The position numbers and the translations under genes were made by a program. The notes below the pieces were generated by a model. It had not been told where the DNA came from, did not search any database, and saw only the letters and a program-made list of their open reading frames with translations. A stretch of 64,000 nt of DNA from Vicinamibacterales bacterium (lineage in GTDB: Bacteria; Acidobacteriota; Vicinamibacteria; Vicinamibacterales; CAZQMT01), in contig CBDAOD010000003.1 in the NCBI GenBank assembly GCA_965197935.1, forward strand, positions 919,171 through 983,170. The letters are read 5' to 3'. This document shows, piece after piece, positions 35,730 through 40,205 of this stretch (position 1 is its first letter; each line of letters opens with the position of its first letter).

Positions 35730-36146
35730 ATGTTCATCACTCGATCGGTGTGGGTGGGAGTCGTCGCACCCCTGGCGGCGGTCTTCACGTTCGTCGCAGT
35801 GGGCCGTAGTGAAGTGGACACGGCGAACGCGTCGCCGCAGGGGACCCCGGGGCACACCGTTGACGCCGGCGACGCGGGTGTCGCCGTGGAGACTCGAACC
35901 GTTGCGCTCCACATCGAAGGCATGACGTGAGGGGGGTGCCCCCTGGCCGTGCGCCAGGCTCTCCTGAATGTCGACGGCGTCGTCTCAGCAGAGGTATCGT
36001 TCGACGACAAGCGCGCCGAGGTCCGTTGCGACGCAGCGGTCGATGCTGCACTGCTGGTGCAAGCCGTCGAGGACGCCGGCTTTGAGGCTCGGGTCATCGA
36101 CACCGCCGACGACACGGCCAGCGGGGACCGCCGATCGTCCCGTTGA
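35730..36146 (+). CDS. Predicted selenoprotein: exported MerP-like HMA protein, motif GMT-U-GG-C (U67)
   Basis: AGGAG RBS and ATG 35730; hydrophobic N-terminus; LHIEGMT-TGA(35928-35930)-GGCPLAVRQALLNVDGVVSAEVSFDDKRAEV...LVQAVEDAGFEA, in frame to TGA 36146. Confidence 0.88.
35928..35964 (+). promoter_or_regulatory. SECIS-like hairpin
   Basis: Upper stem CCTGGC/GCCAGG (35942-35958) with loop CGTGC 17 nt after UGA; lower stem GGGGGG/CTCTCC. Confidence 0.65.
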
Positions 36147-36592
36147 GAGCGCCGGACGCCCGGGCGCAACAGACGCACAGGCACACCGCAAACGGTCGTC
36201 AGGAAGGGACGCTCTTGAACGACCCCTCCCCATGGGATCCGCGCGCTCTGAACGATCGTCTGCCGGGTGTCGCAAGCGCCGTCTCCGCCCTCCTCGCGGC
36301 CAGTTGCTGTCTCCTGCCGATCGCCTTGATCACCTTGGGGATCGCCGGGGCGGGCATCATGATGACGATGATGCGCTACGAGTGGCTGACACTTCCCCTC
36401 GGCGTGGGTGGCCTCGTGGGCGCCGCCGCCCTGTACGTCAGCAACCGTCGGCGGTGTGAAACGACCGGCTGCCGTTTTGTCGGACAGCGGTTCAACCAGG
36501 CGATGCTGGGGCTCGCTGCGCTGGTCGTGGCAGTGGCGCTATTGCTGAAGGTGTTCCCCGCGTGGACCGCGACGCTGCTACAGCAGCTCTGA
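36143..36592 (+). CDS. MerT-like heavy-metal transport membrane protein (start may be TTG 36215)
   Basis: Three TM helices, AASCCLLP in TM1, loop RRRCETTGC; same Cys layout as MerT. Confidence 0.8.
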   Translation: MRAPDARAQQTHRHTANGRQEGTLLNDPSPWDPRALNDRLPGVASAVSALLAASCCLLPIALITLGIAGAGIMMTMMRYEWLTLPLGVGGLVGAAALYVSNRRRCETTGCRFVGQRFNQAMLGLAALVVAVALLLKVFPAWTATLLQQL

Positions 36593-36604: not shown

Positions 36605-37453
36605 GTGCTGAGGCCTGACGAAGTCGCATGGATGGCTCTGGCCGCCGTCCTTTCGATGCCCCAGTCTTCGCCGGCCCAGATCGTGGCACCAGCCGGCCGA
36701 ACGCTGTTCAACCGATCGGTGATGCTTCGCAGTTTCGTGCGCGTCGATCACTTCATCGACACCGGACCGGGCGAAGAGACTCGTCGCCTCGTGAACCCGT
36801 ATGCGGTCGTGTGGGGCGTGTATCCCAACGTCAGCGTGACCCTGGTCACGCCCGTGGTCAGCCTGCGACGTCAGACCCCAGGCGGATCCGAGCGACCATC
36901 CCCGCTGACGAGCTTCGGCGATAGCAGCCTCCTGGCTCGCGTGGACGTGTGGCGCCGGCTCGTCCCGGGCGGGTACACGCGGCTCTCGCCGGAAGTCGGC
37001 GTCAAGATGCCCACCGGAGGAACGTTCGGCAGCGGATCGACCGACGCGATCGCCGGTTTGGTCCTGTCTCACGTGCGCGACCCGCATTGGTTGGTCGGTG
37101 ACGTTCAGTTCACCTACACCACGACCGGGGACGGTGACCTTCGCGCCGGCAATCGCTGGCGGTATGATTTCGCATATCTTCACCGTTTGCTCCCGCGAGA
37201 CGGATTGGGCATTCCGACCGTCTTGGCCGTCCTGGAGGTGAACGGTGAACACGGCCGGCACGCCCGCGCTGGCGATGTGCCGCTACCGAATAGCGGAGGC
37301 GATCTGGTGTTCCTCTCACCGGGTGTCGAGCTCATCACGTCGCGGCGGCTCGTCATCGAGTGCTCGGTGCCGATACCGATTCACCGCGATCTCAACGGAT
37401 CGCAGCTGGAACCGGCATGGAGCTTCATCGGGGGCGCGCGATGGCTGTTCTGA
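36605..37453 (+). CDS. Outer-membrane beta-barrel, transporter/MetA-pathway-like
   Basis: Signal peptide, GDSSLLARV, GVKMPTG..GSGSTD, NSGGDLVFLSPG, terminal RWLF. Confidence 0.7.
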   Translation: MLRPDEVAWMALAAVLSMPQSSPAQIVAPAGRTLFNRSVMLRSFVRVDHFIDTGPGEETRRLVNPYAVVWGVYPNVSVTLVTPVVSLRRQTPGGSERPSPLTSFGDSSLLARVDVWRRLVPGGYTRLSPEVGVKMPTGGTFGSGSTDAIAGLVLSHVRDPHWLVGDVQFTYTTTGDGDLRAGNRWRYDFAYLHRLLPRDGLGIPTVLAVLEVNGEHGRHARAGDVPLPNSGGDLVFLSPGVELITSRRLVIECSVPIPIHRDLNGSQLEPAWSFIGGARWLF

Positions 37454-38442
37454 GGTTCCAGGTGGTCGTTGTCTTGCTGGGAGGCTTCGTTGCATCTCTG
37501 ATGCTGGCCGACCACGGGCGGGCTGCCGGACCACCGTACGCCTCGGACGCGACGGACGGAGCCGCGTTGCCCCGGGCCGACCCGCACTACCGGACGGTGG
37601 GACGGTGGGGCGTGGCTGGCGAGCGCCCTGGTCAACTGAACGGTGTGCAGGGGATCGCGGTTGATTCGGCGGGCGAGGTGTACGTCGCAGACGCCGAGAA
37701 CTGCCGCATCCAGGTCTTCAGCCGCGAAGGGGAGTTTCGTCGATCGTGGGGCGAATGCGGGGAGGGCGAGGGCGAATTCATCAAACCAACCGACGTGGCG
37801 GTGGGGGTCGATGACGAGATCTTCGTCGTGGACTTCATGCTCGACCGGCTCCAGGTCTTCGACGGACAGGGAGCCTACCTGCGGGGGTGGGGTACCTCGG
37901 GCACCGGCCCGGGGGAGTTTTCGTCGCCGGTTGGAGTCGCAGCCGGTCGGGACAGGTCCGTCTATGTCGTCGAGTTCTACGGCCATACCATACAGAAGTT
38001 CTCCAGCGACGGGCTCTGGATGGCCACGTGGGGCGGCGAGGGACACGGTGAGGGACAGCTCTACTATCCGGCGAAGATTGGCCTGGGCCCGGACGGTGGT
38101 GTCTATGTGGCCGACGCACATAATGCCCGCATTCAACGGTTCGATCGCGAGGGCCGGTTCGTCGGTACCTGGGGTCAGGCTGGTACGTGGTACGGTCATC
38201 TCAACGATCCGGTAGACGTCGTCATCGCGCGCGACGGTTCGATGCATGTGGCCGACAGTGCGAATTTTCGTGTGCAGTGGCTGGCCGCCGATGGCAGCTA
38301 CATCGCGGAGTGGAAGTTGCCCGGAGAGACGGCCGGCCGGTTTCAGTCGCCGCAGGCGCTGGTGCAGGATGCGCAGGGCTATCTCTACGTGAGCGATACG
38401 GCTGGCAACCAGATCTACAAGCTGGAGGCGGTGCGACCATGA
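37441..38442 (+). CDS. Exported NHL-repeat six-bladed beta-propeller
   Basis: Repeated P..IAVD..G.VYVAD..N.RIQ.F units with WG..G.GPGEF linkers; start and stop overlap both neighbours. Confidence 0.92.
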   Translation: MAVLRFQVVVVLLGGFVASLMLADHGRAAGPPYASDATDGAALPRADPHYRTVGRWGVAGERPGQLNGVQGIAVDSAGEVYVADAENCRIQVFSREGEFRRSWGECGEGEGEFIKPTDVAVGVDDEIFVVDFMLDRLQVFDGQGAYLRGWGTSGTGPGEFSSPVGVAAGRDRSVYVVEFYGHTIQKFSSDGLWMATWGGEGHGEGQLYYPAKIGLGPDGGVYVADAHNARIQRFDREGRFVGTWGQAGTWYGHLNDPVDVVIARDGSMHVADSANFRVQWLAADGSYIAEWKLPGETAGRFQSPQALVQDAQGYLYVSDTAGNQIYKLEAVRP

Positions 38443-40205
38443 AGAGAGTGATCAGACATCTCGCGCGGGCGGGGCTCGCCAGCGTCACGACCGCGGTACT
38501 GCTACTCACGGCGGCTCCGGCAGTCGCCCAGGTGGATCAGGCATGGGTGCGCGTCGATGGTCTGACTTGACCGCTCTGAGCCTATGGGGTCGAGAAGGCC
38601 CTCCGACGCCTGGATGGCGTCGATCGTGTGACGGTGGATCTGAGAGCCGGTACGGCTGTCGTGCAGTCGGCGGAAGGGGAGGGGTTCGATCCGACCTCGA
38701 TCGCCACGGCGGTTCGAGACGCGGGATTCAGCGCCGAGCGGATCGATGTGACAGCCGTCGGCACCGTGGTGAATGAGGGTGGCGCCGCTCGACTGGAGAT
38801 GACCGCTCCATTGACGGCTCTCCGCCTGCGGGACGGAACAAAGACCGCACAGCTGAAGGAACGCCGCGGTCTTCTCCAGGGGCCGCTACGTCTCACGGGC
38901 CGGCTCGAGCCGGCCCGTGAGGGGCAGCCTGCGCTCCTGGCCCTCGAGACCTGGGAGCCGGTTGATGACGGGAGTGCGAGAAGGGATCGATCAGATCCGA
39001 GGTGGCAGGCGGAGGCTTCGCCACCCGCGATCGGCGAGCTGGAGATGCTCGCGTCGCCGGCTGGACCGAAGAGCGGGCAGCCGCAGCTCCACCGACCCCA
39101 GGAGGGCCGCGTCATCCTGAGCTGGCTCGAGCCCGGCGCGTCGGCCAAGACCCGGCTGCGTTTCGCGGAGCGTGACGGGAGCGGCTGGTCGGCTCCGCGG
39201 ACGGTAGTGGATGGCGAAGAGTTCTTCGTGAACTGGGCGGACGTCCCATCCGTGGTTCGGCTGGCCGACGGCCGCCTCGCGGCGCACTGGCTGAACAAGA
39301 GCGGACCGTCCACCTATGCCTACGATGTCCGACTGAGGATATCGGATGACGGCGGCGGGGTGTGGTCGTCCGCGCTCACGCCCCACCGTGACGGAACGCT
39401 GACCGAGCACGGCTTCGCGTCGCTGTTCGACTGGGCTCCAGGCGGCCTGGGCCTCGTGTGGCTCGACGGCCGGGAGATGAGCGCCGAGAGCGGGCCCGGG
39501 CGGGACGACAGAGGCTCGATAACCTTGCGGGCGACGACGCTATCGCCCGATCTCGAATTCGCCCCTGAGGTTCTCCTCGATGGCCGCGTCTGTGAGTGTT
39601 GTCCGACGGCGGCGGTGCAGACCGACCAGGGAGTGGTGGTCGCCTATCGTGATCGCAGCGACGAGGAAGTACGCGACATCGCTACGGTTCGGTATCACAA
39701 CGGGAGCTGGAGCGACCCCGTCATCGTTCATCGGGATGGCTGGCAGATTCGCGGATGTCCGGTGAACGGTCCGGCGCTGGCGAGCGACGGTCAGATCGTC
39801 GCTCTGGCCTGGTTCACGGCCGAGGCCGGCGACGGTCGGGTCCAGGTGGCGTTCTCCCAGGACGCAGGCGCCTCGTTCGGTCGGCCGATCCGCATCTCCA
39901 GCGACGTGGCGCTCGGGCGTGTCGACCTCACCTTGCTCCCGGACCGGTCGGCGCTCGTGACCTGGATCGGCTCCCGAGCCGGAACGTCGGAGTTCCTGCT
40001 CCGACGGGTGGCACGTTCGGGCGAGATGGGGGCTCCCCGGTCGATCGTGGCCATCGACTCGAGCCGCGCGAGCGGCGTGCCGCGCCTGGTGCGGTCGGGT
40101 GACGAGCTCGTATTCGCGTGGACCGAGACCGGGGCGGTCTCGCGCGTGCGCACGGCGGTGGCAGCGCTCGTCGAGACGAAAGTGTCCCCGACCCGGTCGC
40201 ACTAG
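38439..40205 (+). CDS. Predicted di-selenoprotein: signal peptide, HMA domain (GLT-U-PL-U; U44, U47) and BNR/sialidase-like propeller with CECC and GCPVNGP
   Basis: ATGA overlap with the NHL stop; VRVDGLT-TGA(38568)-PL-TGA(38577)-AYGVEKALRRLDGVDRVTVDL is in the same frame as track ORF 38628-40205; 588 codons. Confidence 0.85.
38568..38622 (+). promoter_or_regulatory. Two tandem SECIS-like hairpins after the UxxU codons
   Basis: GGGGTC-GAGAA-GGCCCT (38586-38602) and CGACGCC-TGGAT-GGCGTCG (38604-38622). Confidence 0.5.

Follow-up and report, generated by a model that had tools for sequence, protein, structure and literature searches.

The window analysed here is a 64,000-nucleotide (nt) stretch of DNA from a Vicinamibacterales bacterium (contig CBDAOD010000003.1, positions 919,171 to 983,170 of the forward strand), whose genome comprises 6.54 Mb in three contigs with 67% G+C. 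It contains a gene for an HMA-domain protein in which two in-frame UGA codons, only three codons apart, replace both cysteines (Cys) of the metal-binding motif, and in which the UGAs are followed by two adjacent hairpins that resemble selenocysteine insertion sequence (SECIS) elements. We refer to the form of the motif with two selenocysteines (Sec, U) as UxxU and to the forms with one or none as UxxC, CxxU and CxxC. The gene becomes a single open frame once both TGAs are read through. Its features are as follows.

38439-40205, + strand: UxxU HMA gene, encoding 588 amino acids (aa) with TGA read as Sec.
38568-38570, + strand: UGA1 (Sec44), replacing the first Cys of the GMTCxxC motif; TGA in 18 UxxU orthologs, TGC or TGT in CxxC homologs.
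38577-38579, + strand: UGA2 (Sec47), replacing the second Cys of the motif, 9 nt from UGA1.
38586-38602, + strand: hairpin 1, with the 5' arm GGGGUC (38586-38591), the loop GAGAA (38592-38596) and the 3' arm GGCCCU (38597-38602).
38604-38622, + strand: hairpin 2, with the 5' arm CGACGCC (38604-38610), the loop UGGAU (38611-38615) and the 3' arm GGCGUCG (38616-38622).

The predicted protein is an exported one: a signal peptide is followed by the HMA domain, a second domain of ~90 aa that is common to its relatives and, at the C-terminus, a BNR/sialidase-like domain. The HMA domain (Pfam PF00403, residues 37-97, E-value 9e-11, 42.4 bits against a cut-off of 24.8) spans both U44 and U47, and its metal-binding motif reads G-L-T-U44-P-L-U47 in place of the usual GMTCxxC. 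The NCBIfam profiles CopZ, UxxU_metal_bind and MerP also gave matches, all below cut-off. The C-terminal domain matched Pfam BNR_2 with an E-value of 2.6e-7, just under the gathering score. This half of the protein (39020-40205) lacks a separate signal peptide, and its fusion to a UxxU HMA part was seen in the source genome only. Searches with the whole protein matched solely stand-alone sialidase-like proteins of ~410 aa, roughly 7000 in number, and no HMA gene adjoined such homologs at the 80 loci examined. The source genome yielded neither a paralog of the N-terminal part (tblastn) nor a second UxxU gene.

Hairpin 1 is a 6-base-pair (bp) stem, G·U pairs included, that closes a 5-nt loop and folds at -9.3 kcal/mol in its own window. 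Spacers of 15 nt and 6 nt separate its stem from UGA1 and UGA2, respectively. Hairpin 2 follows after a single nucleotide; it has 7 bp, a 5-nt loop and a folding energy of -14.0 kcal/mol, overlies the codons for R-R-L-D-G-V-D, and is separated from UGA2 by 24 nt and from UGA1 by 33 nt. In the consensus model of bacterial SECIS (bSECIS) elements by Zhang and Gladyshev (summarised in PMC13188914), an upper stem of 4-16 bp carries an apical loop of 3-9 nt, and at least one of the two leading loop nucleotides is G, most often as GG or GU. The distance from UGA to loop is 16-37 nt and the energy -7.5 kcal/mol or lower (PMC13188914). In the source gene, both hairpins agree with these stem and loop sizes and with the energy limit. 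The loop of hairpin 1 lies 21 nt from UGA1 and 12 nt from UGA2, that of hairpin 2 lies 31 nt from UGA2 and 40 nt from UGA1; hairpin 1 is in range for UGA1 only and hairpin 2 for UGA2 only. The initial annotation of this DNA, which had proposed two tandem hairpins here, possibly one SECIS for each UGA, was accurate in its coordinates, in the 7-bp stem of hairpin 2, in the loops GAGAA and UGGAU, and in the spacings of 21 and 31 nt, both of which lie within the bSECIS range.

Taken from the source genome alone, the signal for these hairpins is weak. The 81-nt local fold has a z-score of -1.5, and its minimum-free-energy structure pairs the region of UGA1 instead of forming hairpin 1. This alternative pairing of CUUGACC, which includes UGA1, with GGUCGAG was dropped, being not conserved in the orthologs. 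Hairpin cores of the type CGCC-NGGNN-GGCG number 341 in the genome, and those elsewhere that resemble hairpin 2 show no link to in-frame UGAs. An Rfam scan of the window returned no match to SECIS or any other RNA family. The z-score and the 341 similar cores bear out the caution of the initial annotation that such hairpins are weak evidence without covariation. They also lend some weight to an explanation in which the hairpins have no RNA function and are by-products of GC-rich coding sequence and of the conserved peptide YGxEKAL-RRLDGV: similar cores are common in the genome, and R-L-D-G-V written in preferred codons yields a 4-5 bp stem automatically. A coding control argues against such an origin for the complete stem of hairpin 2, as its 7 bp were found in only one of 65 long genomic frames encoding [RK]L[DE]GV, namely the UxxU gene.

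With the first 195 aa of the protein and a small alignment as queries, genomes from the order and phylum of the source organism were searched for homologs, and the corresponding DNA was then fetched. The UxxU orthologs recovered, 18 in number, form four well-supported clades (D1-D4), and the source gene belongs to D1. Protein identity between these clades is 26-42%, and the best identity of the source protein to another UxxU member is 42%. UxxC relatives, each with one UGA, fell into clade A (about 29 genes, motif GMDUxxCAHAV), clade E (6 genes, motif GMTUGxCPLAVRQAL, one of them at 35730-36146 in the window) and clade F (5 genes, motif GITUPxCAA). Many CxxC homologs were found, ten of which were used for the hairpin comparison. 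A metagenome scan with the alignment of clades D and F, back-translated with Cys as TGY, returned CxxC genes and one Cys form of clade F only. Clade A has a conserved SECIS of its own, CCACGC-CGUGC-GCGUGG, and has undergone several Sec-to-Cys switches. One genome (G361) holds both a Sec and a Cys copy of this clade (loci L134 and L159); in the Cys copy the hairpin remains unbroken, suggesting that this switch happened recently.

All 18 UxxU orthologs have both hairpins, at identical codon positions. Given 17 distinct sequences over 96 nt, RNAalifold predicted exactly two helices, hairpins 1 and 2. The covariation comparison across UxxU, UxxC and CxxC homologs that the initial annotation had called for indicates that both stems covary, with none of 500 shuffles reaching the observed score for either. 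For hairpin 1, 92% of the cells in the alignment are paired and compensatory double changes occur in four of the six pairs; the covariation score is 0.564 compared with 0.277 in shuffles, and slid registers collapse. Its stems read GGGGCC/GGCCCU, GGGAUC/GAUCCC, AGGUC/GACCU or AGCCUC/GGGGCU in different clades. For hairpin 2, 97% of the cells are paired; its core of four pairs does not vary at all, while the outer pairs covary (A-U, G-C and G-U at one position, C-G and G-C at another). Folding energies in the orthologs are always -8.9 kcal/mol or lower for hairpin 2; for hairpin 1 they are weaker than -7.5 kcal/mol in three of the 18.

The codons beneath the stems carry the same signal. In the core of hairpin 2, arginine and glycine are written as CGC and GGC in every one of 22 genes, whereas elsewhere in the same genes these codons account for 26% (arginine) and 44% (glycine) of choices, and rare codons preserve stem pairs, such as CGA or CAA opposite GUC or GUU. 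When the UxxU genes were shuffled one by one among synonymous codons, the z-scores were negative in 18 of 18 for hairpin 2 and in 17 of 18 for hairpin 1. These per-gene values are modest in size, a point in favour of a by-product, and those of the ten CxxC homologs scatter around zero.

Neither hairpin exists in these ten CxxC homologs, so that the two hairpins are conserved together with the UGAs (18 of 18 UxxU genes) and lost in Cys homologs, as bSECIS elements are. The initial annotation had named equal presence of the stems in Cys-only homologs as an observation that would speak against it; the opposite was found. In the window of hairpin 1, energies range from -0.6 to -6.5 kcal/mol in CxxC genes versus -4.3 to -14.6 kcal/mol in UxxU genes, and in that of hairpin 2 from -1.1 to -6.0 versus -8.9 to -14.0 kcal/mol. 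CxxC homologs with the near-identical peptide KRLDGV (L238) encode it with other codons, and the stem is absent. An origin of the hairpins as by-products of peptide and base composition is largely refuted by the compensatory changes in both stems. It is also at odds with the fixed and rare codons, with the near-identical CxxC peptide that has no hairpin, and with the divergence between clades, which are not near-identical copies of each other; we regard it as highly improbable. Both hairpins exist, are under selection at the RNA level and are tied to the use of Sec. Judging from these sequence comparisons, both very probably have a function in the signal by which the Sec codons of the UxxU motif are decoded. 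The source genome also encodes the Sec machinery that such a signal calls for, with a tRNA-Sec (UCA) at position 1466944 of contig C3 (C3:1466944), and with selA (527 bits) and selB (341 bits), both above cut-off. Recognition of SECIS elements by SelB is species-specific.

The HMA family offers a natural comparison for how the hairpins relate to the number of UGAs, with no hairpin in CxxC genes, one in the UxxC genes of clades A and E, two in UxxU genes, and clade F as the exception. Clades A (29 genes) and E (6 genes) have a hairpin at the first position, and an equivalent of hairpin 2 was found in none of these 35 genes. The energies of the hairpin 2 window reflect this distribution.

UxxU (n = 18): mean -11.5 kcal/mol; 18 genes at -8.9 kcal/mol or lower.
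Clade A (n = 29): mean -3.5 kcal/mol; 0 genes at -8.9 kcal/mol or lower.
Clade E (n = 6): mean -4.0 kcal/mol; 0 genes at -8.9 kcal/mol or lower.
Clade F (n = 4): mean -13.0 kcal/mol; 4 genes at -8.9 kcal/mol or lower.

Of the ways in which the two UGAs may be read, we rank first, if tentatively, one hairpin per UGA. This part of the initial annotation gains from the spacing rule and from the difference between one hairpin in the UxxC genes of clades A and E and two in UxxU genes. With UGA1 in the A site, hairpin 1 would act as the SECIS, its stem 15 nt and its loop 21 nt downstream; this stem spacer is within the 11-15 nt seen for other Sec candidates of the genome, which are described below. 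The ribosome would then advance three codons and would have to melt hairpin 1, the 5' arm of which begins only 6 nt past UGA2. The footprint of the ribosome is known, and from it hairpin 1 should be unwound while UGA2 is in the A site, which would leave hairpin 2 as the only structure available to UGA2. Possibly already loaded with a second SelB·GTP·Sec-tRNA complex, hairpin 2 would deliver Sec to UGA2 from a loop 31 nt downstream. Three parts of this model are inferences: the binding of SelB to both hairpins, the pairing of each hairpin with a single UGA, and the hand-over as hairpin 1 melts. Two pre-loaded SelB complexes would avoid reloading one site within two codons. The locus may thus hold a natural tandem bacterial SECIS, in which two hairpins are separately loaded with SelB and the melting of the first hands over to the second; on comparative sequence grounds, we put this forward as a possibility and with reserve.

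Several observations weigh against the assignment of one hairpin to each UGA. The first concerns clade F, in which a long hairpin 1 and hairpin 2 are both present in five of five genes despite the single UGA. Within this clade, hairpin 2 covaries (CAA/GUU versus CGG/GUC), and it is mismatched in the sole Cys version that was encountered, with CGG replacing CGC. This pattern implies that hairpin 2 is tied to Sec use and is not exclusive to a second UGA. The backbone of the phylogeny is unresolved, giving no polarity for clade F relative to the UxxU clades and no indication of descent from a UxxU ancestor. In addition, no CxxU or UxxC members were found inside the UxxU clades, nor any CxxU gene in the family as a whole; such genes would have separated the two hairpins. 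The second concerns the loop of hairpin 1. An early G in both loops, as remarked in the initial annotation, holds for the source gene and, as NGG in hairpin 2, for all 18 UxxU genes and the clade F genes, but hairpin 1 departs from it in six of the 18. Three clades have GAGAA, GAAAA or GUCAA as its loop, whereas clade D2 has AACC, AAUC, AGCC or ACCC and one gene (L264) has AUCAA. Such variability in sequence looks like the mark of a structural role rather than of a protein-binding site. The third is the distance of hairpin 2 from UGA2: the spacer between UGA and stem is 11-15 nt in the seven that were counted of the nine genomic Sec candidates, and 24 nt here.

In a rival model, the sole SelB site is hairpin 2, the apex of which is the invariant CGCC-NGG-GGCG; it would act for both UGAs, and hairpin 1 would be a structural spacer or pause element. 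The folded hairpin 1 would shorten the path from UGA1 to hairpin 2 and would melt when the ribosome reaches UGA2. In line with this proposal, hairpin 2 is invariant down to its loop and synonymous sites, as expected of a protein-binding site, and its GGA/GGC loop follows the commonest bSECIS loop pattern and resembles the GGACUG of an AhpD-like Sec gene in the same genome. Hairpin 1, by comparison, is kept as a structure only and has no loop G in clade D2, and clade F retains hairpin 2 with its one UGA. A precedent exists as well: in UxxU hydrogenases, a single predicted SECIS is common to the CxxU and UxxU forms and was proposed to serve both UGAs (PMC13582414). However, the loop of hairpin 2 is 40 nt from UGA1, and 43 nt in clade F, beyond the range of 16-37 nt. 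The codon position of UGA1 is also a UGA in clades A and E, which decode it with a hairpin where hairpin 1 lies and lack hairpin 2; in addition, a single site would require SelB to be reloaded within two codons. A single SECIS with an accessory hairpin is the main rival and comes close behind one hairpin per UGA, though we consider it the less likely of the two.

Conversely, hairpin 1 could be the only SECIS and hairpin 2 could have another role at the RNA level, such as ribosome slowing, mRNA protection or the binding of another factor. UGA2 would then be decoded in some other way, for instance by SelB retained near the ribosome or by near-cognate read-through. The position of hairpin 1 is that of the single SECIS in the UxxC clades A, E and F, and clade F has hairpin 2 without a second UGA, both as this explanation would predict. 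Yet hairpin 1, lying 6 nt past UGA2, would have to be unwound and could not act there, hairpin 2 is kept in all 18 UxxU genes, and its breakage in the Cys version of clade F, together with its absence from all CxxC homologs, ties it to Sec. We consider this arrangement unlikely, and continue to place one hairpin per UGA ahead of both alternatives.

The genes upstream of the UxxU gene include a second, one-UGA selenoprotein gene, which served as a comparison from the same operon.

35730-36146, + strand: MerP-like HMA selenoprotein gene of clade E, motif GMT-U-GGC, with its UGA at 35928-35930.
35943-35957, + strand: SECIS-like hairpin CUGGC-CGUGC-GCCAG of the MerP-like gene, single and kept in 6 clade E genes.
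36143-36592: MerT-like membrane protein with a CC motif, after the MerP-like gene.
36605-37453, + strand: outer-membrane-barrel-like gene, recurring beside UxxU orthologs.
37360-38442, + strand: NHL-repeat gene, recurring beside UxxU orthologs.

By tblastn, homologs of these two genes were located next to most UxxU orthologs, at 13 loci for the barrel gene and at 9 for the NHL gene. The two also adjoin UxxU orthologs in other families of the phylum (loci L231-L247, L108, L260 and L261), and the UxxU, barrel and NHL genes look like a conserved three-gene cassette. The presence of the UxxU protein in this cassette, with the MerP-like selenoprotein and the MerT-like permease adjoining, points to a selenium-based handling of soft metals.

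Screening the genome for in-frame UGAs flanked by coding signal upstream and downstream gave nine further Sec candidates: Grx-like, AhpD-like, Prx-like, redoxin, DsbA-like and rhodanese-like proteins and three paralogs with a W-U-P motif. Their loops include GGUCA, GGACUG (AhpD-like), GUG, GGUCC, CGUGC, CGUGU and GUU. The likely selenoprotein genes on contig C3 lie at 81352, 81893, 801945, 2242435 and 2299931 on the + strand and at about 2848068 on the - strand, with the motifs TPTUPHC (Grx-like), CHYU (AhpD-like), FQUPFC (DsbA-like), FTKGUT (Prx-like), WUPFC (redoxin) and YCTUP (rhodanese-like). Most of them have canonical SECIS-like hairpins, which indicates a large thiol-redox selenoproteome in the source organism. 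In the Prx-like gene, a single UGA is followed by two adjacent hairpins. The three W-U-P paralogs are encoded on the minus strand of contig C2, with UGAs near forward positions 2115701, 2051561 and 550555. In each, the W-U-P motif is conserved and a hairpin of 6-8 bp, closed by a loop of CGUGU or GUU, lies 13 nt past the UGA; the stems vary from one paralog to the next, and the three are probably a selenoprotein family. A tRNA-ReC was not found in the source genome with ARAGORN or Rfam. The one candidate, a 94-nt 'tRNA-Cys' (GCA) called by ARAGORN at C3:795750-795843 on the - strand, had no Rfam match at E ≤1 and was treated as a false positive, on account of this and of several other over-long ARAGORN calls in the genome.

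A bacterial SECIS must sit just behind its UGA, and this constraint on position makes the reading of two UGAs three codons apart as Sec an unsolved question. The hairpins described here share the main traits of bSECIS elements, of which the SECIS of E. coli fdhF is the prototype: each is a short stem-loop in the coding region just past an in-frame UGA, with 16-37 nt to one of the two UGAs, and both are lost in Cys homologs. They differ in that there are two of them, separated by 1 nt and following two UGAs that lie 9 nt from each other, in that the loop of hairpin 1 is not conserved and has no G in one clade, and in that hairpin 2 is 24 nt from UGA2. A conceptual likeness exists with eukaryotic SELENOP mRNA, which has two SECIS elements in its 3' untranslated region and many UGAs. 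The likeness goes no further than more than one SECIS in an mRNA with more than one UGA, as structure, position and factors differ.

When comparing the UxxU HMA genes with other UxxU proteins, the closest parallels are found among hydrogenases and other HMA-fold selenoproteins. In the UxxU forms of Group 4 [NiFeSe] hydrogenases, both Cys of a metal-binding CxxC are likewise UGA, three codons apart (PMC13582414, 2026). The survey explicitly left open how the two UGAs are decoded, and reported that tRNA-ReC is enriched in those genomes (PMC13582414). The HMA family, in contrast, has two conserved hairpins, its one-UGA relatives are UxxC and not CxxU, and no tRNA-ReC was found. The NCBIfam families NF041115 (UxxU_metal_bind) and NF045683 (MerT/CopZ fusion-like selenoprotein) have the same HMA/CopZ/MerP fold with Sec in the CxxC, as UxxU in NF041115; FmdB-like and Prx-like families of bacterial UxxU proteins exist as well. 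The source protein reaches 35.5 bits and four other UxxU orthologs, one per clade, 30-48 bits against the NF041115 cut-off of 95 bits. None of 401 genomes of the phylum contained a member above this cut-off, and the source protein is also far below that of the MerT/CopZ selenoprotein. Unlike both families, the UxxU HMA family has the second domain of ~90 aa, and in the source genome the sialidase-like fusion.

Thus, bacterial SECIS elements and UxxU HMA selenoproteins are already known, whereas conserved tandem SECIS-like hairpins behind UGAs three codons apart are not described as far as the searched literature shows. The conserved pair could reveal how bacteria read two UGAs at this distance. 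If tandem reading is true, bacterial back-to-back Sec insertion would have its first defined solution, and this would provide a design rule and template for engineering and expressing diselenide, UxxU or other proteins with closely spaced selenocysteines.

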